Shown here piece by piece: positions 7,707-24,873 of a DNA stretch of 32,000 bases; position 1 is the stretch's first letter, and each line of letters starts with the position of its first letter. This stretch comes from Breznakia sp. PF5-3 (GTDB taxonomy: Bacteria > Bacillota_I > Bacilli_A > Erysipelotrichales > Erysipelotrichaceae): the NCBI RefSeq assembly GCF_029504745.1, contig NZ_JAQFIQ010000014.1:15863-47862 (forward strand), given 5' to 3'. The notes under the pieces were generated by a model, which searched no databases, had not been told where the DNA came from, and saw only the letters and a list, made by a program, of their open reading frames with translations. The position numbers were made by a program, and so were the translations under genes.

Positions 7707-9806
7707 ATGAAAACAAACGTGACTGAGGTTTTTGGGTCTATGGTCTTTGATGATCGTTGTATGAAAGCAAAGTTACCTAAAGATGTTTATAAAAAGTACA
7801 AAGCTACGATCGATGAAGGAAAGCTTCTTGATCCTGATTGTGCTAATACCATTGCATCCGCTATGAAAGATTGGGCTATTGAAAACGGTGCAACACATTA
7901 TACTCATTGGTTTCAGCCAATGACAGGAATCACTGCAGAAAAGCATGATGCTTTTATTTCTCCAAGTGGAGATGGAAGTATTATCATGGAATTTTCTGGT
8001 AAAGAACTTATCAAGGGTGAACCAGATGCTTCTAGTTTTCCTAATGGTGGATTACGAGCAACTTTTGAAGCTCGTGGTTATACTGGGTGGGATCCAACAT
8101 CATATACATTCATCAAAGAAGGCGTTTTATGTATCCCAAGTGTCTTCATGTCTTACAATGGCGAAGCACTTGATAAAAAAACACCACTCCTAAAATCTCA
8201 AGAACTTATCAATACGCAAGCATTGCGAATTCTAAAGTTATTTGGTAAAGATAATGTGAAACGCGTTCATACAACCGTTGGTGCAGAACAAGAATACTTT
8301 CTTATTGAAAAGTCACTTTGGGATCAACGAAAAGACTTGATTTACACTGGTAGAACACTTTATGGTGCTAGACCTCCAAAAACTCAAGAACTTGATGACC
8401 ACTACTTTGGTGTATTAAAACCAAAAGTAGCATCGTTTATGAAAGAACTGAATGAAGAATTGTGGAAATTAGGTATTCTAGCAAAAACGCAACATAATGA
8501 AGTTGCTCCTGCACAACATGAATTAGCACCTATCTATTCACTCACAAATGTCGCTACCGACCATAATCAACTAACTATGGAAATCATGAAAAAAGTGGCC
8601 TTACGCCATGGACTTGTTTGTTTATTACATGAAAAGCCGTTTGCAGGAATCAACGGAAGTGGTAAACACAATAACTGGTCCCTATCAACAGATACCGGAG
8701 AGAACCTGTTAGAACCTGGAGATACGCCAAGTGAAAACGCTCAATTCTTGCTTATGCTAGCAGCGCTAGTTAAAGCTGTTGACGATTACCAAGACTTACT
8801 AAGAATATCTGTTGCAAGTGCAGGAAATGATCATCGCTTAGGTGCTAATGAAGCCCCTCCTGCAATCATTTCCATCTTTACTGGTTCTGAGTTAGAAGAA
8901 ATCATAAATGCAATCATTGAAGATAGACCTTGCAAAACGGTATGTGCGAATAAAATGACCATCGGTGTTGATGCCTTACCTCCTTTTACAAAAGACACAA
9001 CCGATCGTAATCGTACATCACCGTTTGCTTTTACTGGAAACAAATTTGAATTTCGCATGTTAGGATCACAATTATCTATTTCTTGTCCTAATATTATGAT
9101 TAACACAATTGTTGCCGATACATTAAATAACTTTGCTGACCATTTAGAAAAAGCAACAGATTTTAATAAAGAATTACACGAATTGATTAAAAAAACATTT
9201 ACTGAACATCAAAGAATCATATTTAATGGTAATGGATATGATGATTCATGGATTGTAGAGGCAGAAAAGCGAGGACTTATGAATTTTAGAACTACGCCAG
9301 AAGCTTTGCCACACTATATGGATGAGAAAAATATTCAATTATTTACTAGAAATAACATTTACACAAAAAGTGAAATGCAATCTCGTATGGATATCTTAAT
9401 CGAAGAATATTCAAAGGCTATTAATATTGAAGCAGAAACAATGGTAAACATGTCTAAGAAGAATATCATTCCTGCCATTTTAGCTTATATCAAAGATTTG
9501 AGTGAAAGCATTGTTACCAAAAAGGCAATATCTTCAACGATAAAGTTTGAAGTTGAAGACTCTCTCATCAATAAATTAAGTGTTCTTGCGAGTGATTTGT
9601 ATCGTAAAACAGAAGAATTAGCAGATGATATCATTAAAGCTAATGGAATTAAAGACTTGCAAGAAAATGCTAAATATTATTGTAATAGCGTGCTTGTGAA
9701 AATGGTTGACTTGCGTGCCATTGCCGATGAAATCGAGCAAAACTGCGCCAAGCAGTATTGGCCCTTCCCTTCATATGGAGATTTATTATATTCTGTCTCT
9801 ATATAA
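7707..9806 (+). CDS. glnN: Glutamine synthetase type III
   Basis: About 700-aa GSIII architecture, with the characteristic N-terminus (FGSMVFDD..MK..LPKDVYKK) and the EVAPAQHELAP and NGSGKHNNWS blocks. GGGAGG RBS. Confidence 0.9.
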   Translation: MKTNVTEVFGSMVFDDRCMKAKLPKDVYKKYKATIDEGKLLDPDCANTIASAMKDWAIENGATHYTHWFQPMTGITAEKHDAFISPSGDGSIIMEFSGKELIKGEPDASSFPNGGLRATFEARGYTGWDPTSYTFIKEGVLCIPSVFMSYNGEALDKKTPLLKSQELINTQALRILKLFGKDNVKRVHTTVGAEQEYFLIEKSLWDQRKDLIYTGRTLYGARPPKTQELDDHYFGVLKPKVASFMKELNEELWKLGILAKTQHNEVAPAQHELAPIYSLTNVATDHNQLTMEIMKKVALRHGLVCLLHEKPFAGINGSGKHNNWSLSTDTGENLLEPGDTPSENAQFLLMLAALVKAVDDYQDLLRISVASAGNDHRLGANEAPPAIISIFTGSELEEIINAIIEDRPCKTVCANKMTIGVDALPPFTKDTTDRNRTSPFAFTGNKFEFRMLGSQLSISCPNIMINTIVADTLNNFADHLEKATDFNKELHELIKKTFTEHQRIIFNGNGYDDSWIVEAEKRGLMNFRTTPEALPHYMDEKNIQLFTRNNIYTKSEMQSRMDILIEEYSKAINIEAETMVNMSKKNIIPAILAYIKDLSESIVTKKAISSTIKFEVEDSLINKLSVLASDLYRKTEELADDIIKANGIKDLQENAKYYCNSVLVKMVDLRAIADEIEQNCAKQYWPFPSYGDLLYSVSI

Positions 9807-11569: not shown

Positions 11570-12313
11570 CTAATGGGTTGTTTTTCTTGTTAAATAATTT
11601 CCTAATGCTTGTATCGCGGTTACGATTAATAAAATAATAATTACTGTAGACCAGGTTGCATCCACTTTACCTCGTGCATATCCATGTCGAATAGCAAATG
11701 CACCTAGACCTCCTCCTCCTACTTGACCAGCCATTGCAGTTAATCCAAGCAATGAAATCAAGGTAATTGATACGGAGCGAATAATACCAGGAATACTCTC
11801 TTTTAAATAAACTCGTGTAATGATTTGCATTGGTGTGTTTCCCATTGCAATACTTGCTTCAATCAATCCATCATCTACTTCTGAAAGTACCGATTCAATT
11901 TGTCTTGCAAAAAATGGAATAGTTCCAAAAATTAAGGGAATATATGTTCCTTTTATACCAGTTGCCGTCCCCATAACCAATCTTGATGCACCAACCAATA
12001 AAGCCATCAAAATAACAAATGGAATAGAACGGAAGAAATTAATAAATTTATCTAAGATAAAATAAATAATTTTGTTTTCCAAAATTCCATCTTTCTTAGT
12101 AACGGTAATAAGAACCCCAAAGATTATTCCAAATATCAATGCAAAGATTCCTGAAAAGAATAACATTTTTAATGTCATATATGTTTCTTGTACCAATTCA
12201 CTAATCATTTTAGGATTATTCATAAAATCCATAGGTAGAAATTGTGTAACAACATCAAATATGACAGCTAAGATTGACTCAAAAAAATTTGAAATCATTG
12301 TTCCTATATCCAT
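11570..12313 (-). CDS. metI: Methionine ABC transporter permease
   Basis: Multi-TM BPD-type permease. The ATG overlaps the metN TAA by 1 nt (TAATG), with GGAGGTG upstream. Confidence 0.9.
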   Translation of the reverse strand: MDIGTMISNFFESILAVIFDVVTQFLPMDFMNNPKMISELVQETYMTLKMLFFSGIFALIFGIIFGVLITVTKKDGILENKIIYFILDKFINFFRSIPFVILMALLVGASRLVMGTATGIKGTYIPLIFGTIPFFARQIESVLSEVDDGLIEASIAMGNTPMQIITRVYLKESIPGIIRSVSITLISLLGLTAMAGQVGGGGLGAFAIRHGYARGKVDATWSTVIIILLIVTAIQALGNYLTRKTTH

Positions 12314-13347
12314 TATTTCAACACCTCCACTCCAACACCTTGTCCTTTAATATACGTGATAGCACTTTCTATGTTTGCTTTTTCACCTTTCAGCTTAACC
12401 ACCAAATTTCCAAGTGGACTATTCGCTAGTACTTCAACATTACCAAATATGATATTAAAACTAACATCATATGTTTTCACTAAGTACGTCATCAAAGCTT
12501 CTTTGGTATTGCTAGATGAGTAAACAAGCCGTAACATCGTCTCATCAACATCCAAATCGACAAGCGGATCATTCTTCTCAATCAATTCATAAATCTGATG
12601 AATCGATGTAGTCGTATTAATAAAAGTACGTGTAACTTCACTTTTTGGTTTTGTAAAAATATCTATGATATTTCCTTCTTCTACAATATTTCCATCTTCC
12701 ATGATTGCTACTTTGTTACAAATCGCTTTTACAACTGCCATTTCATGAGTGATGATTACAATTGTTATTTTGAGCTTTTCATTTAAGTTTTTTAGAAGTG
12801 CTAGTATTGATTGTGTTGTTTGAGGATCAAGTGCACTTGTTGCTTCATCACAAAGCAGAATACTAGGATCATTAGCCAAAGCTCTTGCAATTGCAACTCT
12901 TTGCTTTTGTCCTCCACTAAGCTGTGATGGATATGCTTTCTTCTTGTCCTTTAATTCTACTAATTCCAATAATTCATCAACCTTCTTATTTATTTGCTCT
13001 TTACTTAAACCACTTCCCTTTAGCGGAAAAGCGATGTTTTGAGCAACAGTTCTAGATCTCATCAAATTGAAATGTTGAAATATCATTCCTATTTTCTTCC
13101 GTTCTGCACGTAAATCCCGTGCACTCAAATCCATTAAATTTTTACCATCAATTACTACTTCACCCTCGGTTGGACGTTCTAATAAATTAATACAACGAAT
13201 TAAAGTACTTTTTCCAGCACCACTGAATCCAATGACACCAAATATATCTTTCTCCTCTATATGTAAGGATGCTTTTCTTACTGCATGTACATCATTTTCT
13301 TTGGTCTTAAATATTTTTGTGATATTCACTAATTGGATTTTACTCAC
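12313..13347 (-). CDS. metN: Methionine ABC transporter ATPase
   Basis: Walker A GFSGAGKST, LSGGQKQR signature, Walker B ILLCDEATSALD, and a C-terminal NIL/ACT-like domain. GTG start at 13347 lies 7 nt after GGAGG; the track ORF is over-extended. Confidence 0.9.
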   Translation of the reverse strand: MSKIQLVNITKIFKTKENDVHAVRKASLHIEEKDIFGVIGFSGAGKSTLIRCINLLERPTEGEVVIDGKNLMDLSARDLRAERKKIGMIFQHFNLMRSRTVAQNIAFPLKGSGLSKEQINKKVDELLELVELKDKKKAYPSQLSGGQKQRVAIARALANDPSILLCDEATSALDPQTTQSILALLKNLNEKLKITIVIITHEMAVVKAICNKVAIMEDGNIVEEGNIIDIFTKPKSEVTRTFINTTTSIHQIYELIEKNDPLVDLDVDETMLRLVYSSSNTKEALMTYLVKTYDVSFNIIFGNVEVLANSPLGNLVVKLKGEKANIESAITYIKGQGVGVEVLK

Positions 13348-13365
13348 ACTTCCACCTCCTATAAA

Positions 13366-13626
13366 ATAAAAAAACATTCTCCCAAAGGACGAATGCATCG
13401 TGTTACCACCTTAATTTACTAATATATTACTATATTAGCCTCTTCGAGTACTATCATACTCTATCACAATAACGGGTGAACCCGACATAATCTAAAGAAC
13501 TCTCATTCAATTATGTAACTCCAAGACCATTTTCGATAAACTACTAACCTTATCCATTTTCACCATACTGGACTCTCTAAGAAGGATTTCATAAATGTAC
13601 TCTTCTCTTCATCGTTTTTAATTTAT
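13366..13626 (-). promoter_or_regulatory. T-box riboswitch leader, probable Met (AUG) specifier
   Basis: On the minus strand: Stem I start CGAUGAAGAGAAGAGUA, an AGAGAG element, and a distal UCCA...GGUGAAAAUGGA loop. The candidate specifier is GA-AUG-A (AUG = 13506-13504). The T-box sequence AAUUAAGGUGGUAACACG is followed by a terminator stem and a U7 tract. Confidence 0.8.
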
Positions 13627-15085: not shown

Positions 15086-16561
15086 TTATTTTTTCACACT
15101 TTCTAACATGCTTAGTTTTAAATCCAATAATTTTTTAGTTAAATCCACATAATATTCTTGTGGATATTCAAAACGGAAAAGCTCATCCCACATACTATCT
15201 CGCTCTGTTTTACTATATGCTCTTATATCTTCAATTTCTGGACAATCATAAACTAATTTTCCACCAATAAATATTGGTACAAGCAATTTTCTTAAATCGT
15301 ATGAACCTGCTTTAAATGTTTTAAACTTCCATACATCTTGAGGATGATAGATTGTTAAATCTTTGGTTTCTAATAACTCCTCATCATGTAAGGTTAGTAA
15401 ATCAGCTGCCGCTTTTCCACTTTCTTTATCATAAATTCGATACACTTCTTTCTTTCCAGGATTGGTAAGCTTTCCAACATTGTCACTAATCTTTATCTTT
15501 GGCAAGTATTGTCCATCCATCAACAATGAACTTAGTTTGTATACCCCCCCAAAAACAGGTGAGCTCTTACTGCATATAAGATTTTCCCCAACTCCAAAAG
15601 AATCTATCTGAGCCCCTTGATCAATCAAAGACTTAATAATATATTCATCAAATGAATTACTGGCGATAATCTTACAATCTTGTAATCCTGCTGCATCTAA
15701 TTCTTTTCTTATTTTTTTAGATAAATAAGAAATATCTCCGCTATCAATTCGTACACTTTGGAGTCGATAACCATTTGGAATCAAATATTCATGAGCGATT
15801 TTAATAGCATTTTTAACTCCACTTCGCAATGTATCATAGGTATCAAGAAGCAATGATGTTTGTGCAGGATAATTTTTCGCATATGCTAAAAATGCTTCGT
15901 ATTCACTATCATAGCTTTGAATAAAGCTGTGTGCCATTGTCCCTGTAACTGGTAAACCAAACATCTGCCCTGCACTTGTTGTAGCACTGGCATTAACACC
16001 AGCGATATAAGCTGCACGAGCCCCATAATTAGCAGCATCAAAGTTGTGAGCACGACGTGCTCCAAATTCCATTACCCCTCTACCTCCAGCTGCACGCACA
16101 ACCCTATTTGCCTTAGTTGCTATTAATGTCTGATGATTAATTGCTAACAAAATAGCTGTTTCAACAATTTGGGCTTCAATAATTTTAGCTTCAATTCGCA
16201 ACAATGGTTCATTGGGAAAAACAACGCTTCCTTCTTGCATAGCATAAATATCACCAGTAAAAATAAAATGACGAAGATAATCTAAAAATTCATCATTGAA
16301 TTTATTTAAACTTTTCAAATAATATATTTCTTCTTCTCCAAAATGTAAGTTTTGAATAAACCCAATCACTTCTTCCAATCCTGCAAAAAGAGCAAATCCA
16401 CCATTATCTGGATTGCGACGATAAAACATATCAAAAGTTACAATTTGATCCTTTTTACCTTCATTAAAATAAACTTGTGCCATAGTCAATTCATATAAAT
16501 CCATTACTAAACTTAAATTTCTTGAATCTCTAAAATCAAATTTCAAATCATAGTTTCTCAT
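15086..16561 (-). CDS. pncB: Nicotinate phosphoribosyltransferase
   Basis: About 490-aa NAPRTase. N-terminal LVMDLYELTMAQVYF, plus the GTMAHSFIQ and RIDSGD blocks. Confidence 0.9.
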   Translation of the reverse strand: MRNYDLKFDFRDSRNLSLVMDLYELTMAQVYFNEGKKDQIVTFDMFYRRNPDNGGFALFAGLEEVIGFIQNLHFGEEEIYYLKSLNKFNDEFLDYLRHFIFTGDIYAMQEGSVVFPNEPLLRIEAKIIEAQIVETAILLAINHQTLIATKANRVVRAAGGRGVMEFGARRAHNFDAANYGARAAYIAGVNASATTSAGQMFGLPVTGTMAHSFIQSYDSEYEAFLAYAKNYPAQTSLLLDTYDTLRSGVKNAIKIAHEYLIPNGYRLQSVRIDSGDISYLSKKIRKELDAAGLQDCKIIASNSFDEYIIKSLIDQGAQIDSFGVGENLICSKSSPVFGGVYKLSSLLMDGQYLPKIKISDNVGKLTNPGKKEVYRIYDKESGKAAADLLTLHDEELLETKDLTIYHPQDVWKFKTFKAGSYDLRKLLVPIFIGGKLVYDCPEIEDIRAYSKTERDSMWDELFRFEYPQEYYVDLTKKLLDLKLSMLESVKK

Positions 16562-16566
16562 CTCAA

Positions 16567-17178
16567 TTACCTCATTTCAACAACTTGAATACCATTTGAA
16601 ATCATAAAACCACAAGCTGTTTCATTCATTTTTTGTTGATCATGTACACCTTCTATATGAAAAGTTTCAATCATATTTATTGGAACAATAATTCTTTTTT
16701 TATTCAAATTGTGTTCATTTAGAAATGTTTGAAAAGCTAATGCAAATTGCATAATACAAATATCACTACAACATCCAACGATAACATAGTCATCATAAGC
16801 TAATAGATATTCTTCCATCTGCGATTGAAATCCTTCTGCTACAAATGCATTGGTACTATTCTTATATATCGTATCTTGTACATACTCTTTCAACTCATGA
16901 ATCACATCTGATTCTTCTGTGTTTTCAATACAGTGAATTGGATATGATTCAAATTCTCTAGCATCTAAATTATGAGAATCGCATACAAAAACATTTGCAG
17001 GTTCATTCTTTAACAACCTAATAATATCATCATTTATCTCTAATATTGAAGCATCACTAAGTGCCCCTTCTTTTGTAAACCCATTTATCATATCAACTAC
17101 AAATACAATTGGTCTAGACAAATCAGAAAATGTAGCTGTAGGGATTTTTTCTTTATATTGCTTTGATACTTTTGCCAT
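16567..17178 (-). CDS. pncA: Isochorismatase-family cysteine hydrolase, probable nicotinamidase
   Basis: VVDMINGF Asp block and GCCSDICI catalytic Cys block. Lies 5 nt upstream of pncB. ATG at 17178 follows AAGGTGG. Confidence 0.75.
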   Translation of the reverse strand: MAKVSKQYKEKIPTATFSDLSRPIVFVVDMINGFTKEGALSDASILEINDDIIRLLKNEPANVFVCDSHNLDAREFESYPIHCIENTEESDVIHELKEYVQDTIYKNSTNAFVAEGFQSQMEEYLLAYDDYVIVGCCSDICIMQFALAFQTFLNEHNLNKKRIIVPINMIETFHIEGVHDQQKMNETACGFMISNGIQVVEMR

Positions 17179-17261
17179 GATTTCCACCTTCTATTTATTA
17201 TTATATTATACACTAAATCAATCATATTTTTTAACTTTCTTGCATTTGCTCATTATTCATG

Positions 17262-17324: not shown

Positions 17325-17561
17325 CTACTTTGGACTATTATAGTATTCGCTTAAAGTGAGTTCATCACCTAAAAAAATATAATCTATTGGTATATTATAT
17401 AGTTTTGCAAGTTTTTTTAAATCTATACCATTTGGAATACTTCTACCACTTTCCCAATTTTTGATCGTTCGCTCTGTTTTTCCAACGATTTTTGCTACAT
17501 CTTTTATTTTCAAATTAGCATTTACTCGACAGGCTTTTAACGTCATCATAAATTCTTCCAT
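17325..17561 (-). CDS. XRE/Cro-type helix-turn-helix regulator
   Basis: HTH_3 pattern (LKIKDVAKIVGKTERTIKNWESGRSIPN...LAKLYNIPIDYIF). AAGGAGGG RBS. Confidence 0.85.
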   Translation of the reverse strand: MEEFMMTLKACRVNANLKIKDVAKIVGKTERTIKNWESGRSIPNGIDLKKLAKLYNIPIDYIFLGDELTLSEYYNSPK

Positions 17562-17597
17562 CCACTACCCTCCTTTACTTTAATTTTATTATAATCG

Positions 17598-17691: not shown

Positions 17692-18297
17692 ATGGGGACA
17701 AAAGAAGAACTAAGAAAAACGTTTTCAGCTAATCTTATATATTACATGAATTTAGCAAATAAAACACAAGCGGATATCATTCGAGATTTAAAATATGGAT
17801 CTGGAATTGTTTCTGAATGGGTGAATGGGAAGAAATATCCTAGAATAGATAAAATTCAAGCATTAGCTGATTATTTAAACATTCATAAATATCAATTGAT
17901 TGAGCCGTTATCATTACACAAACAAAGAAAGGTAAATTCTAAAATACCACTTTATAAACGGTTTTTAATTGAAGAAGAGAAAGTAGATTACATTGTTTAT
18001 GATAATAAACAAAGCAATCATGAATATTTTGCATTAACCATCACTAATAACACACTGCATCCTGAATTTCATAAAAATGATGTTGTTATTGTCGAACGTG
18101 TAGATAAGCTATCTAATGGTCAAATTGCTGTGATTAAGCTTAAGCGGAAGATACAAGTTCGAAAAGTGAAAACTAAGAAGAAACAGATATTCTTAGAAAC
18201 ATTACTTCAAAACAAAAAAGATGATACTATCGAGATACAATCTTTAGATGAAATTGAAATTTTAGGTGTTATAAAAGAGCTAAAGCGATTCTATTAA
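17692..18297 (+). CDS. CI/LexA-like repressor: XRE HTH plus a degenerate S24 peptidase-like C-terminal domain
   Basis: N-terminal HTH (KTQADIIRDLKYGSGIVSEWVNGKKYP). The C-terminal S24-like fold reads NNTLHP at the position of the GDSMxP motif. TGGAGGA RBS. Confidence 0.75.
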   Translation: MGTKEELRKTFSANLIYYMNLANKTQADIIRDLKYGSGIVSEWVNGKKYPRIDKIQALADYLNIHKYQLIEPLSLHKQRKVNSKIPLYKRFLIEEEKVDYIVYDNKQSNHEYFALTITNNTLHPEFHKNDVVIVERVDKLSNGQIAVIKLKRKIQVRKVKTKKKQIFLETLLQNKKDDTIEIQSLDEIEILGVIKELKRFY

Positions 18298-18409: not shown

Positions 18410-18814
18410 ATGAACAAACTAAAATTTGCTTTGTATCGATTTATGCAAGGACGGTATGGAAATGATAAGTTAAATAACTTTATCTTTATTATTCTTATTA
18501 CTTTAACCATTATCAATACTTTTTTCTTTCAAAACTCAATCCTTGTATTCCTTATTTATGCTTTCTTGATTGTAGTAATCTTTCGAACATATTCGAGAAA
18601 CATTTATGCTCGTCAAAAAGAAAACAATAAATTTCTAAATTTAACTAATCCAGTTCGCAAAAGATTTCGTATTATAAAAAAGAATCATCAAGATAAAGCG
18701 AATAAATATTACTTGTGTCCTCACTGTTTTCAAAGTGTAAGAGTTCCTAGAGGCAAAGGAAAAATTGAAATCAAATGTCCAAAATGTTCACATCATTTTA
18801 CTAAAAAAACATAA
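18410..18814 (+). CDS. Small membrane protein with a C-terminal zinc ribbon
   Basis: Two TM helices followed by CPHC...CPKC. AGGAGG RBS. Confidence 0.7.
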   Translation: MNKLKFALYRFMQGRYGNDKLNNFIFIILITLTIINTFFFQNSILVFLIYAFLIVVIFRTYSRNIYARQKENNKFLNLTNPVRKRFRIIKKNHQDKANKYYLCPHCFQSVRVPRGKGKIEIKCPKCSHHFTKKT

Positions 18815-18816
18815 AT

Positions 18817-18855
18817 AAAAAACTCCTTGCTAATAAAGCTTAAGGAGTTTTTTTG
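18817..18855 (+). terminator. Rho-independent terminator
   Basis: AAAAACTCCTT / AAGGAGTTTTT stem followed by a T-run. Confidence 0.7.
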
Positions 18856-18983
18856 ATTATAAGTTAATATTCTTTTCATAATGGTAATCATATTATTTTT
18901 TATCTTTCGTTTATAATAGTTTTAAATTATAAATTTTATATTTTGGACTATACTAAATTTAGAGAACATGATAAAATATAAGT

Positions 18984-19085
18984 GGCTAAAAATAGCCAGT
19001 CTCTTTATATGGATGTTTGATATTCTCACTTATTATAATCAAACATCTTTCTCTCTTCGACATACAATTTTGTATGTCGTTTTAT
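18984..19085 (+). ncRNA. Candidate small RNA (about 100 nt), three hairpins with a CU-rich linker
   Basis: Extended -10 TGaTAAAAT (18969-18977). Hairpins are TGGCTA-AAAA-TAGCCA (18983-18998) and GATGTTTGAT/ATCAAACATC (19012-19047). The single-stranded linker is TTTCTCTCTT. The terminator is CGACATACAA-TT-TTGTATGTCG (19058-19079) plus TTTTATT. No plausible ORF. Confidence 0.35.
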
Positions 19086-19089
19086 TATT

Positions 19090-19178
19090 ATAAAAAAAGA
19101 GCCTTACGGCTCTATAATTTTTAAGGGTGTAAAACAAGGTAGGAAGATAGGAAAGGGATATTTACACCTTGTTTTACT
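19090..19178 (-). ncRNA. Candidate small RNA (about 86 nt) with a CU-rich 25-nt hairpin loop
   Basis: On the minus strand: TTTACA (19211-19206), 16 nt spacer, TGcTATAAT (-10 at 19189-19184). A 12-bp stem (19177-19166 / 19140-19129) carries the loop GUAAAUAUCCCUUUCCUAUCUUCCU. The terminator is AGAGCC-GUAA-GGCUCU (19113-19098) plus U7. No ORF. Confidence 0.4.
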
Positions 19179-19489
19179 ATATCATTATAGCATAAATGTA
19201 TTTTATGTAAACTAAAATGTTCATTTAAAATGAAGTATTAAAATGAAAGTGTGAATATCGAGTTTATATAATGCTATGAAGCTTTAAATTATACTTCCTT
19301 TTATATGAAAATTGCTTCGTTTATCGCTTTATTTTATAAATAATATAGTTATTAATCCAACCATATAACGATATAATTATCTTGTGTTTAACACTTATAA
19401 TCTGTTGTTTTTTTATCAGACCAACAATCACATAATAATATATTTTAATAACTAAAGTCTTGTGATAAAATAAAAAAAAGAGGTATCTT

Positions 19490-20074
19490 ATGAAAGACAA
19501 AATAATCGTGCCAGATGCTGTCCTTTGCAACTGTTACCAAGAACGAAAAACCAATATACACCCTAGTGATTATATCGTTTTCGATACAGAGACTACTGGA
19601 CTTTCTCCAACCCATAATCGAGTTATTGAAATTGGAGCAATCAAATATCATAATTATGAAAAAATTGAAGAATTTAATCAATTGATCAATCCTGAAGAAT
19701 CAATTTCTTCTTTCATCACCAATCTAACTGGCATTCGTAATGAAGATCTTATAGACAAACCGACAATAAAAAGTGTCTTACTCGATTTTTACGAGTTTAT
19801 TGAAGATTATACATTAGTAGCTCACAATGCTTCCTATGATGTTAAAATGCTTGCTGGTGAAGCACACCGATGTCAGCTTGACCTATTTCCTAATATGGTG
19901 ATTGACACTGTACCATTAGCACGCAAAACAATACCTAAACCATTGATTGAAAATCATCGTTTAGAAACGCTTAAAAACTATTTTGGACTTGTCAACAACT
20001 CGCATCGCGCTATTGATGATTGCGAAACATGTAACACCGTTTATCAATACTATTGTGAACAACAAAGCAAATAA
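19490..20074 (+). CDS. DEDDh 3'-5' exonuclease (DnaQ/PolC-exonuclease-like), stand-alone
   Basis: ExoI VFDTETTG, ExoII LVAHNASYDVKML, ExoIII HRAIDDCE. AAGAGG RBS. Confidence 0.85.
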   Translation: MKDKIIVPDAVLCNCYQERKTNIHPSDYIVFDTETTGLSPTHNRVIEIGAIKYHNYEKIEEFNQLINPEESISSFITNLTGIRNEDLIDKPTIKSVLLDFYEFIEDYTLVAHNASYDVKMLAGEAHRCQLDLFPNMVIDTVPLARKTIPKPLIENHRLETLKNYFGLVNNSHRAIDDCETCNTVYQYYCEQQSK

Positions 20075-20112
20075 AAAAACAATCTATGGAGGGAATTATA
20101 GATTGTTTTTTT
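20073..20112. terminator. Bidirectional terminator
   Basis: ACAATCTAT / ATAGATTGT stem (20079-20087 / 20098-20106), flanked by A6 upstream and T7 downstream. Confidence 0.75.
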
Positions 20113-20174
20113 CATTTGTCCTTCCCGATTCTTCCAATTAGCCCTTTCCTTTACCCCGATATATTAATATAACG

Positions 20175-20420
20175 CCTTTCCAACTTCCTTTTCCCTTTCC
20201 TTCTTCCTTTACTACCTTTCCAACTTCCTTTTTCTCTTTCCTTCTTCCTTTACTACCTTTCCAACTTCCTTTTTTCCTTTCCTTCTTCCATTAATTACCT
20301 TTCCAGCTTCCTTTTTTCCTTTCCTTCTTCCATTAATTACCTTTCCAACTTCCTTTTTCTCTTTCCTTCTTCCTTTATTGCCTTCCCAGCTTCCTTTTTC
20401 TTTCCATCTTCCATTTCTTG
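20175..20420. repeat. Six tandem 40-42-nt polypyrimidine(+)/polypurine(-) non-coding repeats
   Basis: Units run 20175-20214, 20215-20255, 20256-20297, 20298-20339, 20340-20380 and 20381-20420. Consensus is CCTTTCCAACTTCC-T4-6-CCTTTCCTTCTTCC-(TTTACTA/ATTAATTA). A degenerate copy lies at about 20120-20160. Confidence 0.95.
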
Positions 20421-20811
20421 GATAAATTAGATCTCCATCCTATCTTACATAAACCTTACAGTTATCTAGTTTATCCCAAAAACTAATTTAACTACTCTTC
20501 TATATCCCATAATCACCTTACCCTATAATTTTAGTAGGAATTAAAATTAATTTTTTATCCACCTCCTTGGTGGACTGTAAAATTAAATTAAATAAGTGAT
20601 TATTCTTCCTTGGCATCCCTGCCTACGCATATACTATCATATCGGAGTAGCAATGCAACTTAAATGCCTATTTTTTTAGTAGGAATTTGTAAATCCCTAT
20701 AAATAAGCTTTATTTTGATTTTTTATAGGCTTTTTTATGTCTACATTTCATAGTGTAGACCATATTTGTTAATTTCAAATAAATCCATTGTTAAGAAAGT
20801 GTTAATTTAAA

Positions 20812-20842
20812 TAAAAAAACGAATAGTTTTACTATCCGATTT
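20812..20842 (-). terminator. Terminator after the LiaF-like gene
   Basis: On the minus strand: CGGATAGT-AAA-ACTATTCG followed by T7. Confidence 0.65.
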
Positions 20843-21574
20843 TTAAATGTAGATAATTTCAATTGAACCTAAAGTTACAGACCCTCGGATTTCAACAAGC
20901 GGTCCGTTTTTATCAATATTATTATAGCGATATTTTTCTTCTGCAGCACCTAGTGTTGTAGAAACATTATTTATTACATTCCAATCTCTTGGAATATATA
21001 ACTCAATTGAACCTAATTCACAATGAACTTCAATATCCAAACCAGATTCACATGGAATAGCGTGATCAAAATATACCTGTAAAGAACCCAATGAACAACT
21101 TAATTTCGCTTTTTGTAAATTATTAGAGTGTAAATATTGAGAACTTGATGAACATGAAGATCTACAATTCACTACATCATCATCCTGGCTCATACTCTCT
21201 TGTCGTTCTCCTCTATTTTTGTAATTATGATGCTCATGATATGAATAATTCCCTCTATATGAATAATCACTTTTAAAAATAATCGATAATCCCACGCTTG
21301 CAAATGCACCAGCTATCATAAGTGGGAAAAATTGGATATGTTGTTCTATATTCAAAATATCTTTATTAATCCAAAACGCCCAAACAAGTGGCATCACAAC
21401 AAGAAACCAATTTCTTCTAAAGATACTAGAAACAGCTATAATAATTAGAAATGCTGTGAAAATCAATCTGAAAACATTTATTTCAAAATAATCAAATTGT
21501 CCCAAAATAATCATTGCTCCTGCACATAGAAAGAACAACCCCCAAAAAATATTTTTACTTTTCATTTTATTCAC
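20843..21574 (-). CDS. Membrane protein with a LiaF-like beta-rich C-terminal domain; likely partner of the LytTR regulator
   Basis: Four N-terminal TM helices. The C-terminus has repeated LGSxxV/LGSIELYIP/LGSIEIIYI strands, as in LiaF/DUF2154-type domains. Overlaps the upstream LytTR gene by 8 nt. Confidence 0.55.
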   Translation of the reverse strand: MNKMKSKNIFWGLFFLCAGAMIILGQFDYFEINVFRLIFTAFLIIIAVSSIFRRNWFLVVMPLVWAFWINKDILNIEQHIQFFPLMIAGAFASVGLSIIFKSDYSYRGNYSYHEHHNYKNRGERQESMSQDDDVVNCRSSCSSSSQYLHSNNLQKAKLSCSLGSLQVYFDHAIPCESGLDIEVHCELGSIELYIPRDWNVINNVSTTLGAAEEKYRYNNIDKNGPLVEIRGSVTLGSIEIIYI

Positions 21575-22022
21575 TCCTCCCTTGAAGTCTAAACTTCAAT
21601 GTCTTATAATACATTCTTGATACGTAAACTTCTTTGTAACTATTTCGAAACTGCACCTTACTGGAGGCAGTCAAATTTCGTTGTATAGAATATATATGAT
21701 GAACATTTAAAATTGTTGATTTTGATACTCGTAAAAAATTGGATGGCAAATCAGCTTCCAATTCATACAACCTAAGTTTTACTCGATATGCGTCTTCTGC
21801 AGTATGTGCATATACTTCATCTTCACTTGTTTCAAAAAATAAAACCGTCTCTAACGGGAAGTAAAATTCATCACTTCCTTTATAAAAAACTATGTTCATC
21901 TGTGGAGATGCATGAGCTGTTATATATTGCTGTATTTTTTGAATATGCTCATCAATGTTTTTACATTTGATAATCACAACTTCTTCATCATCATTATCTA
22001 TTAATTCAATATGTACTTTCAT
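21567..22022 (-). CDS. Stand-alone LytTR-domain DNA-binding protein (no receiver domain)
   Basis: LytTR pattern: VLFFETSEDEVYAHTAEDAYRVKLRLYELEADLPSNFLRVSKSTILNVHHI. AAGGAGATGAG RBS. Confidence 0.8.
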   Translation of the reverse strand: MKVHIELIDNDDEEVVIIKCKNIDEHIQKIQQYITAHASPQMNIVFYKGSDEFYFPLETVLFFETSEDEVYAHTAEDAYRVKLRLYELEADLPSNFLRVSKSTILNVHHIYSIQRNLTASSKVQFRNSYKEVYVSRMYYKTLKFRLQGRSE

Positions 22023-22079
22023 TTCTCATCTCCTTGTTTACATTATAGCGGATTATTTTTATTTTCCTATTATTTTTCG

Positions 22080-22109
22080 CTAAGTGGTTATGTTTTTAAA
22101 GTAAGTGGA
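22080..22109 (-). promoter_or_regulatory. Candidate LytTR box: two 9-bp direct repeats separated by 12 bp
   Basis: On the minus strand: TCCACTTAC (22109-22101), 12 nt, ACCACTTAG (22088-22080). They lie 32 nt upstream of TATAAT (22047-22042) of the LytTR gene. Confidence 0.5.
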
Positions 22110-22122
22110 TAAAAAAGAAAAT

Positions 22123-22153
22123 GAAGAAGTTGACTTCACCAGTCAACTTCTTC
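22123..22153 (-). terminator. Terminator of the 54-aa ORF
   Basis: Perfect 13-bp stem GAAGAAGTTGACT / AGTCAACTTCTTC. The stop codon lies in the loop and a T-rich tail follows on the minus strand. Confidence 0.75.
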
Positions 22154-22300
22154 ATCATACTGTATTGTCTCATTCCCCTCCATACCAACAACATCATAAT
22201 AAACACCTATTAATTCATTTTCGCTCATTGCATTTAAATCAACAACTGTATATTCACTTGTCTCTTGTAAAATACGAGCAACCATATCTTCATGACTCAT
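22136..22300 (-). CDS. Small acidic protein, 54 aa (below the ORF-track cutoff): MSHEDMVARILQETSEYTVVDLNAMSENELIGVYYDVVGMEGNETIQYDEEVDW
   Basis: ATG at 22300 lies 7 nt after AGGAGG. The gene is followed by a perfect terminator and lies downstream of marR on the same strand. Confidence 0.6.
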   Translation of the reverse strand: MSHEDMVARILQETSEYTVVDLNAMSENELIGVYYDVVGMEGNETIQYDEEVDW

Positions 22301-24796: not shown

Positions 24797-24873
24797 TGGG
24801 GCGACCGATGGGATTTGAACCCACGCATGACGGGACCACAACCCGCTGTGTTAACCGCTTCACCACGATCGCC
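24797..24873 (-). tRNA. tRNA-His (anticodon GUG), with encoded G-1 and CCA
   Basis: Minus strand reads G-GCGATCG...TTGTGGT anticodon loop...GGTTCAAATCC T-loop...CGGTCGC-C-CCA. The extra 5' G opposite C73 is typical of tRNA-His. Confidence 0.9.

Follow-up and report, generated by a model that had tools for sequence, protein, structure and literature searches.

CU-rich loops that target Shine-Dalgarno regions are common among the small RNAs (sRNAs) of Firmicutes, and in the LhrC family of Listeria, as well as in other sRNAs with CU or UCCC loops, they pair with purine-rich ribosome-binding regions. Among eukaryotic transcripts, ciRS-7 (CDR1as) carries many tandem sites for a single microRNA. 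To our knowledge, almost no regulatory RNAs have been described in the Erysipelotrichia, to which the insect-gut genus Breznakia belongs. The closest described bacterial systems are found in other Firmicutes. In Bacillus subtilis, the RNA RosA sponges the sRNAs RoxS and FsrA, its G-rich regions pairing with their C-rich seeds; RosA has three such G-rich binding regions, and RsaI of Staphylococcus aureus has two (PMC8216469).

The locus described here lies in a window, i.e., the whole 32-kb stretch of DNA from Breznakia sp. PF5-3 that was analysed, and was compared with ~10-kb fragments of Breznakia genomes. It contains two putative RNA genes located 1 kb apart (Table 1). On balance, we think it probable, by a modest measure, that the shorter one, sRNA-1, is a base-pairing sRNA and that the second non-coding RNA serves as its multi-site decoy (sponge). 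According to this proposal, sRNA-1 would be a stand-alone, trans-acting, Breznakia-specific sRNA whose CU-rich apical loop of 25 nt acts as the seed and is kept open by the 12-bp stem. The second transcript (~550 nt) would run on the minus strand from ~20624 to 20076, starting from a conserved promoter downstream of a LytTR/LiaF-TM operon, and would display the complement of the loop in three forms: the (A)GGAAG-N2-4-GGAAAGG(G) repeats, which are single-stranded, GAAGAUAGG, which long hairpins carry in their loops, and AGGAAAGG(G), which occupies the loops of short ones. Such a decoy would bind many sRNA-1 molecules, keeping them from their mRNA targets, and may also promote their decay. We infer this direction of control, in which the sponge acts on the sRNA rather than the sRNA on the long RNA. 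A more specific design is put forward tentatively: a dedicated tandem-array sponge directly downstream of a LytTR regulatory system, with up to 18 sites for one invariant loop, presented both single-stranded and in kissing-type hairpin loops, and with fast copy-number change. What can be read from the sequence and from its comparison among lineages is the anatomy and conservation of the two RNAs, the strand on which the hairpins are favoured, and how specific and how numerous the complementary sites are.

Table 1. Coordinates of the RNA features in the window.
Feature	Position	Strand	Details
sRNA-2	18969..19090	+	second conserved small non-coding unit, convergent with sRNA-1
sRNA-2, parts	18969-18977 (extended -10); 19058-19089 (terminator)	+	extended -10 TGaTAAAAT; three hairpins; CU-rich linker UUUCUCUCUU; terminator
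sRNA-1 transcript (predicted)	19092..19177	-	~86 nt; stem, loop, 15-nt linker, terminator
sRNA-1 promoter	19184..19211	-	-35 TTTACA (19211-19206), 16-nt spacer, extended -10 TGcTATAAT (19192-19184)
sRNA-1 stem	19177-19166 with 19140-19129	-	12 bp; GTAAAACAAGGT with ACCTTGTTTTAC
sRNA-1 loop	19165-19141	-	GUAAAUAUCCCUUUCCUAUCUUCCU; 25 nt, CU-rich
sRNA-1 proposed seed	19141..19157	-	CCCUUUCCUAUCUUCCU; invariant in five lineages; complementary to array motifs
sRNA-1 terminator	19113-19092	-	AGAGCC-GTAA-GGCTCT, then U6/7
Bidirectional terminator	20076..20115	both	A7-CAATCTAT-loop-ATAGATTG-T7; exonuclease gene (+), purine-motif RNA (-)
Array of sRNA-1-complementary sites	20120..20415	-	41-nt units at 20175-20415, degenerate copies to ~20120
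Hairpin HP-A	20420..20477	-	GGGAUAAACUAGAU ... AUCUAAUUUAUCC; loop with GUAAGAUAGGAUGG
Hairpin and second box	20522..20580	-	TCCACC-AAGGA-GGTGGA, then second TCCTAC-N8-TAGG box (20539-20522)
Purine-motif RNA promoter region	20631..20684	-	palindromic box, -35, 16-nt spacer, extended -10
Palindromic box of that promoter	20684-20667	-	TCCTAC-N8-TAGG
-35 and -10 of that promoter	20658-20653; 20639-20631	-	TTGCAT; 16-nt spacer; TGaTAGTAT

The sRNA-like unit that the first-pass annotation had described, with a promoter, a stem beginning at the first base, a 25-nt loop and a terminator, is present on the minus strand in all its features. The promoter scores 11/12 plus the TG and is among the two best promoter-like matches of the region. 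As a class, such matches are not enriched in this AT-rich DNA (22 seen vs 25 expected); terminator-like sites are (8 seen vs 1.2 expected). The stem begins with G19177, the predicted transcription start, and a closing G-U brings its pairs to 13. The predicted transcript folds with a minimum free energy of -24.4 kcal/mol (z = -6.2), a stability reached by 0 of 200 shuffles. The claimed lack of an open reading frame also holds: the 86-nt transcript has no AUG, its GUG directly precedes UAA, and the list of reading frames contains none on this strand at this place. The loop complement AGGAAGATAGGAAAGGG lies at 19141-19157, where it had been reported. An Rfam cmscan of positions 18800-20900, at the gathering threshold and with E up to 10, gave no match for sRNA-1, the RsaE/RoxS family included.

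The sRNA-1 unit is found in five Breznakia lineages, with promoter, stem and loop nearly identical in all of them, and the neighbouring proteins of these lineages are just 50-73% identical. A covariance model (R1) of the 57-nt hairpin matches the copies in L009, L022, L029 and L026 with 74-93 bits. Both promoter hexamers and the TG are identical in 5/5 lineages, so that the form TTTACA-16/17-TGCTATAAT is kept, and the spacer sequence has diverged. The linker and the flanks have diverged as well, and the genes beside sRNA-1 vary from species to species. The five terminators (AGAGCC/GGCTCT, AGAAC/GTTCT, AGAGC-GAAA-GCTCT, AGAGC-AATT-GCTCT and AAGCCC/GGGCTT) all differ in sequence, and each consists of a G+C hairpin with a U run after it. 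None of the five lineages shows a change in the 17-nt CU tract, which falls within a loop of 24-25 nt in every predicted fold; due to this invariance, no co-variation between sRNA and sites could be seen. In the stem, all alignment cells of the five lineages are paired (60/60); double compensatory changes are absent from these lineages because the stem is almost invariant. The sole changes are two independent A-to-G substitutions in the 5' arm, through which A-U becomes G-U in minus-strand RNA; read from the opposite strand, they would yield C-A.

Outside Breznakia, no match to sRNA-1 was found near the homologue of the neighbouring 134-aa protein, either in Anaerorhabdus or in one further lineage. 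Viral and metagenome contigs contained only chance matches to the loop 18-mer and 20-mer, all within coding DNA. Nothing in the phage and plasmid collections matched, and hence nothing points to a mobile origin; the genes around sRNA-1 (NAPRTase, isochorismatase, HTH, HTH and the 134-aa protein) belong to the core Breznakia synteny. Since promoter, stem and loop were kept while linker and terminators diverged, sRNA-1 would be a real, genus-restricted gene. Judged on this comparison, the compact unit proposed at first reading is a genuine stand-alone non-coding transcription unit, presumably transcribed in the cell.

The convergent unit sRNA-2 folds at -30.6 kcal/mol (z = -7.3) and is ~95% identical in the closest relative, L009, with flanks that cannot be aligned; it was also found in L022 and L029. 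A 41-aa reading frame at this unit is broken by a 2-nt indel between the window and L009. As a candidate for a second partner of the array, sRNA-2 performed no better than its own shuffles. Its CU-rich segments have no excess complementarity to the array and constitute a negative control for the sRNA-1 loop. Should the pairing proposed for sRNA-1 fail, both units remain ordinary new genus-specific sRNAs.

The purine repeats form part of a non-coding region (0.3-1.2 kb) that follows the LytTR/LiaF-TM operon in 5/6 lineages; the spacer after LiaF-TM extends over 0.77-1.2 kb with no called gene in four lineages and over ~0.3 kb in the B. blatticola-type loci. In the window, the array comprises 5.8 copies of a 41-nt unit (20 + 21 nt) with 90% matches, and each unit carries two motifs, AGGAAG-AA-GGAAAGG and AGGAAG-UU-GGAAAGG. 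Therefore, 11 strict GGAAG-N2-GGAAAG sites plus degenerate ones are present, instead of the six repeats initially counted. Sites just 20 nt apart may not all be occupied simultaneously. Two positions also had to be corrected: CCCTTTCCTTCTTCCT, given as 20191-20206, lies at 20193-20208, and TCCTATCTT, given as 20436-20444, lies at 20438-20446. The repeat unit differs by species (41 nt, 18-19 nt or irregular) and the bipartite motif is retained, with a linker of 2 to 4 nt between the half-motifs. Array length differs even at 99.6% identity between two strains or assemblies, with 11 motif copies in the window vs 2 in GCA_029504715.1, which may reflect strain variation or assembly collapse. A coding function of the array was discarded, as its 12-codon mini-ORFs (MEEGKEKRKLER) occur in only two units of the window and are absent from other species.

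Transcription of the repeat region probably proceeds on the minus strand, the orientation on which the proposed complementarity depends, as judged from the conserved TG promoter, the terminator and the minus-only G-U pairs of its hairpins. The TCCTAC box and the -10 region, with its TG, align in five species; the -35 (TTGCA/TTGACA) aligns in 4/5 and is weak in L021. Promoter scans call equivalent minus-strand promoters in L012, L018 and L026; a simple scan does not recover the window copy because its -35 matches at just 3/6 positions. The pair formed by the hairpin TCCACC-AAGGA-GGTGGA and the second TCCTAC box is also present in L012, L018 and L021, and so is an equivalent of the bidirectional terminator, a hairpin with T runs on either side. 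HP-A carries in its loop GUAAGAUAGGAUGG, whose complement forms the central part of the sRNA-1 loop, and this hairpin folds at -14.6 kcal/mol as minus-strand RNA vs -12.3 kcal/mol as plus-strand RNA. Nine hairpins of the HP-A type occur in four species; their stems vary, and GAUAGG (usually GAAGAUAGG) is retained in or beside the loop. In 15/17 cases, the hairpins of the long RNA are more stable in the minus-strand form, with summed energies of -101.5 vs -64.8 and -68.9 vs -35.6 kcal/mol for the minus vs the plus strand. Only on the minus strand do the hairpins of the repeat region contain G-U pairs, and one of them shows a compensatory change from A-U to G-C between the L012 and L021 copies. 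The entire RNA is not unusually stable and is predicted to be largely single-stranded, the array portion being mostly unpaired in the centroid fold. Rfam searches of the window and L012, at gathering and permissive E-values, returned nothing relevant and no CsrB/Rsm-type family.

The 16-nt duplex with one bulge that had been postulated between loop and repeat is reproduced by prediction: the best site forms 16 pairs with one bulge at -27.0 kcal/mol, and the others reach -19 to -22 kcal/mol. The array sites are the best predicted loop targets on both strands of the 32-kb window, the own antisense of sRNA-1 excepted. Sites predicted at <= -14 kcal/mol number 11 in the window array (minus strand) and 18, 9, 6 and 3 in the other species, compared with 0 on the opposite strand of the purine regions and 0.1-0.9 per kb elsewhere. 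The real loop outdoes 98-100 of 100 composition-matched shuffled loops in each of five species, and the net cofold gain of -21.6 kcal/mol is matched by only 1/100 loop-shuffled sRNAs. In addition, three structural contexts in the long RNA all show pieces of one 17-nt complement. The complementarity noticed in the first-pass annotation is therefore sequence-specific and recurrent in five species, and it suggests that the two RNAs would pair in vivo.

Regarding messenger targets, no conserved one was found for sRNA-1 among the local genes. The idea of Shine-Dalgarno pairing fared poorly: among 124 genes, the best ribosome-binding site is predicted at -15 kcal/mol vs -20 to -30 kcal/mol at array sites. 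The ribosome-binding site of a Cro-like HTH gene (-20.4 kcal/mol in the window) was rejected as a target, given that it is not conserved and reaches only -11 to -13 kcal/mol in other species.

The position of the two RNA genes on both sides of an exonuclease gene, to which significance had been attached, is an incidental trait of this genome. In the B. blatticola-type loci one RNA gene directly adjoins the other on a common strand and no exonuclease separates them, and in B. pachnodae they are on different contigs. The association of the array with the exonuclease does not hold either in L009, which keeps sRNA-1 and shows, within 8 kb, no array in the interval from the exonuclease to LiaF-TM; therefore, either sRNA-1 has another role or the array is elsewhere in that genome. 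A search of genome contigs with the exonuclease protein returned only distant proteobacterial homologues. LytTR (151 aa) and LiaF-TM (243 aa), identified by Pfam, are encoded in the operon 20843-22022. LytTR regulatory systems are defined by a LytTR-only regulator together with a membrane protein, and by direct repeats 11-13 bp apart located ~10 bp upstream of the -35 (PMC6193735). The operon shows this arrangement: ATCCACTTAC-N11-AACCACTTAG precedes a weak -35 by 10 bp, and four other lineages have similar repeats. These direct repeats correspond to ACCACTTAG and are unlike the array motif. Before the long RNA, the search for LytTR-type direct repeats found only single CCAC(T/C)TA-like copies within a hairpin and no pair spaced by 21 bp. 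The position beside a LytTR system suggests a possible signal input; any link between the long RNA and this regulator is speculative.

Several other explanations have to be weighed against the decoy proposal. An unlikely, though still credible, one is that sRNA-1 acts on mRNAs through purine-rich ribosome-binding sites and that its match to an unrelated purine spacer is a by-product of low complexity. The persistence of sRNA-1 in L009 with no array nearby would suit this, as would the motif CCUUUC, which the loop presumably has in common with the 16S rRNA 3' end of Firmicutes, and the frequency of CU-rich loops in this group. A low-complexity match, however, sits poorly with shuffled loops of the same composition being far worse in five independent arrays, with the CU-rich parts of sRNA-2 lacking any excess, and with one 17-nt complement recurring in three structural contexts; the adjoining RNA genes of the B. 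blatticola-type loci and the energy gap between local ribosome-binding sites and the array point the same way. It is rather unlikely that the long purine RNA works in the manner of CsrB/RsmZ, as a protein sponge titrating CsrA or another purine-motif binder, with sRNA-1 being either unrelated or an antagonist that covers the binder sites. Dozens of GGA triplets, some of them displayed in hairpin loops as AGGAAAGG(G) on stems that co-vary, would be expected of such an RNA, and so would its largely single-stranded, not unusually stable nature. The variable spacing of the half-motifs is typical of protein recognition; nevertheless, a linker of 2-4 nt fits bulged pairing and equally a protein that reads two short purine motifs. 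What a protein sponge leaves unexplained is an invariant loop that matches both half-motifs, their order and their flanks over 16-17 nt beyond shuffles, and the Rfam results do not speak in its favour. The examined reading frames of the 32-kb window include no csrA. Both modes are compatible, and both could hold.

If the bipartite motif were instead a site on DNA, the array would be an operator or iteron-like cluster with ~20.5 bp spacing, and the copy in sRNA-1 an additional operator just downstream of its promoter. This is very improbable. The spacing of 20-21 bp in the window, about two helical turns, the presence of the motif in both orientations and the regulators encoded nearby (LytTR, MarR and HTH/S24 proteins) are in its favour, but elsewhere the spacing is 18-19 bp or irregular and the half-site gap varies from 2 to 4 bp. 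Moreover, all array copies have one orientation relative to the conserved promoter and terminator, the motif also appears in loops of hairpins whose stems change yet pair, with G-U on a single strand, and the repeats of the LytTR operon differ (ACCACTTAG). That nothing here is functional, the array being a decayed repeat-protein gene or a recent tandem expansion and the sRNA unit a product of chance, is scarcely credible and already contradicted by the comparative data. Promoter-like hexamers do occur at chance frequency in this AT-rich DNA and array length does vary between nearly identical strains or assemblies, but the 57-nt hairpin, scoring 74-93 bits, recurs in five lineages with its terminators exchanged, and five species, each with its own arrangement of the repeats, retain the motif region. 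The 41-nt period is not divisible by three, and the array has no reading frame of at least 40 aa. Among systems based on repeats, the array is like ToxI in being a tandem array of ~5.5 non-coding repeats of 36-45 nt. A type III toxin-antitoxin (ToxIN-like) locus was rejected: neither strand has a toxin gene after the array, and other species lack regular repeats. Beyond the array, the minus strand holds the terminator and exonuclease antisense sequence; the plus strand lacks any reading frame of at least 40 aa before 20843. CRISPR and retron readings were also rejected, with no partner genes in the reading frames examined.

The proposed sponge pair is best compared with the RoxS/FsrA-RosA and RsaE/RsaG/RsaD-RsaI systems, whose sRNAs likewise present pyrimidine-rich unpaired seeds (PMC8216469). 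Like RosA and RsaI, the Breznakia decoy would be a separate non-coding RNA with its own promoter and terminator that binds the seed through single-stranded regions rich in purines or G (PMC8216469), and accessible seed-complementary regions are indeed predicted in it. It differs in having 3 to 18 predicted sites, arranged in the window as a near-perfect tandem array, and in the seed: in place of short CCCC motifs, it has a CU tract of 17 nt that includes one CCC and lies in a 25-nt loop. The putative Breznakia pair has no sequence or Rfam relation to those systems. The LhrC family is not homologous either and carries several short UCCC motifs, in contrast to the single long invariant loop of sRNA-1. 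With CsrB, CsrC, RsmY and RsmZ, the purine-motif RNA has in common its length, its non-coding nature, many GGA motifs, several of them in hairpin loops, and a modular, fast-changing repeat number; those RNAs titrate the CsrA/RsmA protein, whereas the Breznakia RNA, which has no Rfam match, repeats the 16-17-nt complement of an sRNA loop. With 10-18 tandem sites for one sRNA, the design would, if true, differ quantitatively from RosA and RsaI: one sponge could absorb many sRNA molecules, giving a threshold-like control, and the repeat number could be tuned fast by recombination. The Erysipelotrichia would gain two conserved sRNAs and one long non-coding RNA, all of them predicted. The likeness to ciRS-7/CDR1as is an analogy only, since domain of life, biogenesis and protein machinery differ; in this sense, the array would be a bacterial counterpart of the eukaryotic multi-site microRNA sponges, setting a sharp threshold on sRNA activity.

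The minus-strand unit that the first-pass annotation had proposed as a small RNA, here sRNA-1 (~86 nt), contains all the features ascribed to it. Its promoter, TTTACA-16-TGcTATAAT, scores 11/12 plus TG, and the 12-bp stem, 25-nt CU-rich loop and terminator fold at -24.4 kcal/mol (z = -6.2). In the AT-rich DNA of the window (G+C 27-35%) promoter-like sites are, as a class, not enriched (22 found vs. 25 expected); terminator-like sites are enriched in the same scan (8 vs. 1.2 expected). The exonuclease encoded in the window matches a protein of Breznakia sp. PF5-3, an insect-gut Erysipelotrichia, at 100% identity. Loci for comparison were reached through homologues of both flanking proteins, other genomes being seen as ~10-kb fragments; scans of public DNA yielded nothing useful. 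A covariance model of the hairpin (R1) matches the window and four other lineages with 74-93 bits: an uncultured relative (L009, exonuclease 73% identical), B. pachnodae (L022), the organism of ERZ27241893 (L029) and B. blatticola-type loci (L026). The alignment shows hardly any change in the -35 and TG-extended -10, in either arm of the stem or in the loop, which is invariant across the lineages compared; the promoter spacer, linker and flanks have diverged. The terminator hairpin differs in each lineage and is followed by a U run in all. The proposed covariation check, run in homologous loci, found the stem kept, with only two substitutions, independent A-to-G changes that both retain a G-U pair on the minus-strand RNA. 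The neighbours of sRNA-1 change from species to species (a P-type ATPase and DUF1905, CorA, or the LiaF-TM spacer), so sRNA-1 is neither the leader nor the trailer of an adjoining gene. No Rfam family matches the sRNA-1/array region at the gathering threshold or at E up to 10, and searches around the 134-aa homologue of Anaerorhabdus and of one other lineage, and in phage and plasmid collections, gave no further sRNA-1. It is very probably a genuine sRNA gene, genus-restricted within the scope tested.

Comparison of the loci also points to a second conserved small non-coding unit, sRNA-2, convergent with sRNA-1. Its -10 is of the extended type (TGaTAAAAT), and besides a terminator it contains three hairpins and the CU-rich linker UUUCUCUCUU; the MFE is -30.6 kcal/mol (z = -7.3). 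It is ~95% identical in L009, present in L022 and L029, and absent from L026; a 41-aa ORF within it is broken by a 2-nt indel. It has neither an Rfam match nor a specific match to the array.

Features of the window around sRNA-1
Feature	Position	Strand	Remark
T-box leader	13382-13621	minus	Rfam, 112 bits; directly upstream of gene 12313-13398
NAPRTase + isochorismatase	15086-17187	minus	
Cro-like HTH gene	17325-17561	minus	
RBS/start of Cro-like HTH gene	17545-17590	minus	best non-array match to sRNA-1 loop in window, -20.4 kcal/mol
Promoter of Cro-like HTH gene	17615-17588		perfect TTGACA-16-TATAAT
HTH/S24 repressor-like gene	17692-18297	plus	
134-aa zinc-ribbon membrane protein	18410-18814	plus	
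sRNA-2	18969-19090	plus	
sRNA-1 unit under study	19090-19211		
RNase T/DnaQ-type exonuclease	19490-20074	plus	
Pyrimidine-rich repeats	20120-20415		
Mini-ORF, two array units	20255-20345	minus	GGAAAGG, 6 nt, AUG, 11 codons, UAA (MEEGKEKRKLER)
TCCTAC-N7-9-(G)TAGG boxes	20667-20684; 20522-20539	minus	
LiaF-TM membrane protein + LytTR-only regulator	20843-22022	minus	
Direct repeats ATCCACTTAC-N11-AACCACTTAG	22109-22079		10 bp upstream of weak -35 of LytTR operon
Small acidic ORF, ~54 aa (MSHEDMVARILQETSEYTVVDLNAMSENELIGVYYDVVGMEGNETIQYDEEVDW)	22136-22300	minus	between MarR gene and LytTR operon
MarR, citrate synthase			listed after LytTR/LiaF-TM operon
tRNA gene	24800-24872	minus	like the T-box leader, ordinary Rfam match

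The repeats had been read as the partner of sRNA-1 in a complementary pair bracketing the exonuclease gene. The sRNA and a complementary minus-strand array stand; the bracket does not. In L009 the exonuclease and LiaF-TM genes lie 20 bp apart without repeats, and the B. blatticola-type loci lack the exonuclease, yet have a purine-motif RNA gene after LiaF-TM. Judged by gene order, the repeats do not belong with the exonuclease. The array repeats a 41-nt unit 5.8 times, and this period is not divisible by three. Each unit carries two motif copies, giving 11 strict sites rather than the six repeats claimed, and the motifs formerly placed two bases away lie at 20193-20208 and 20438-20446. The mini-ORF is absent from the other array units and other species.

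The spacer after LiaF-TM measures 0.77-1.2 kb and has no called gene in the window, B. pachnodae (L012), L018 and L021, which share one minus-strand plan. It starts with the LiaF-TM terminator, followed by a palindromic box (TCCTAC-N7-9-TAGG, with a second copy in some species) immediately upstream of a promoter (TTGCAT/TTGCAA/TTGACA, 16-17 nt, TAGAAT/TAGTAT/TATTAT; TG in most, -35 weak in L021). A CCACC...GGTGG hairpin, one to four modules and a bidirectional terminator complete it. Each module is made up of a long hairpin that carries GAAGAUAGG within or next to the loop, a series of (A)GGAAG-N2-4-GGAAAGG(G) motifs and a short hairpin whose loop holds AGGAAAGG(G). Promoter-like sites and terminators number just two each in the L026 scan, every one of them on the minus strand, and they bound a predicted purine-motif RNA of ~210 nt with sRNA-1 directly after it. 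The box, just upstream of the -35(s) and conserved in five species (also L012, L018, L021 and L026), resembles an operator for a dimeric regulator and differs from the LytTR direct repeats.

Array length varies between assemblies. In GCA_029504715.1 (L001 3687-3973 vs. window 20232-20552) the sequence is 99.6% identical, with 2 motif copies vs. 11, and departs from the window right after TAGTAGGAATTAAAATTAATT (20552), 95 nt before the contig end; L002, a contig of a second assembly, ends within the array. The difference may be genuine, in copy number and structure, or may stem from collapsed short reads.

The purine-motif RNA gene, where present, always follows the LytTR/LiaF-TM operon. That operon (20843-22109, minus strand) encodes an HdrRM/BrsRM-type LytTR regulatory system made up of a LytTR-only regulator (151 aa) and a LiaF-TM membrane protein (243 aa). 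Similar direct repeats occur in four other lineages (L009, L012, L021 and L026). At the place equivalent to the small acidic ORF, B. pachnodae L012 has a called 54-aa gene (8071-8235) of weak tblastn similarity.

For 15 of 17 spacer hairpins the minus-strand RNA is the more stable form, with summed energies of -101.5 vs. -64.8 and -68.9 vs. -35.6 kcal/mol, a difference due to their G-U pairs. Their stems vary between copies and the loop motif is kept; one pair changes from A-U to G-C between L012 and L021. The whole 557-nt purine-motif RNA is of unremarkable stability (z = +0.3) and its array part is unpaired in the centroid structure, as would be expected of a display platform.

When the loop is scanned on both window strands, the array sites rank top after sRNA-1's own antisense (best -27.0 kcal/mol, others ~-19 to -22, background mean -4.5). 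Across five species, the minus-strand spacer RNA has 11, 18, 9, 6 and 3 predicted non-overlapping sites at <=-14 kcal/mol; the plus strand has none, and the rest of the loci 0.1-0.9 per kb. Composition-kept loop shuffles reach the observed top-ten mean in 1, 0, 0, 2 and 1 of 100. With sRNA-1's own fold allowed for, binding of one array unit brings a net -21.6 kcal/mol, reached by 1/100 loop-shuffled sRNAs. For CU-rich stretches of the neighbouring sRNA-2 there is no excess of array complementarity, so general purine-pyrimidine complementarity does not explain the match. Among 26 strict motif copies the linker AA, which pairs around one bulged loop base, is commonest (12/26), and the flanks favour the loop complement (A before in 19/26, G after in 21/26).

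Species differ in repeat organisation yet keep the motif, which suggests that the motif rather than the repeat unit is under selection. The comparative data agree poorly with a cluster of DNA-binding sites and with the absence of any function. Less likely readings are also a CsrB-like protein sponge, which is compatible with pairing, and a spacer simply unrelated to sRNA-1. The best-supported model is sRNA-1 with a multi-site sponge RNA. Sequence comparison shows the anatomy, its conservation, the strand bias, and how many complementary sites there are and how specific. The purine-motif RNA would act as the sponge, offering many sites for the sRNA-1 loop; expression of both RNAs, their pairing, which of them controls the other and the signal that acts as input are what we infer. 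L009 keeps sRNA-1 without an array nearby, which implies other targets. No mRNA target emerged among the 124 gene starts of all fetched loci, where the best ribosome-binding site reaches -15 kcal/mol, and the suggested Shine-Dalgarno pairing finds no support. The strong window site, at the Cro-like HTH gene, was rejected as a target, its match not being conserved in B. pachnodae or L029.

The proposed pair would be analogous to RosA/RoxS of B. subtilis and RsaI of S. aureus, whose sponges have two or three purine-rich regions (PMC8216469); here, 3-18 array sites are predicted per species. The kind of system is already known, and the tandem many-site version would be new.
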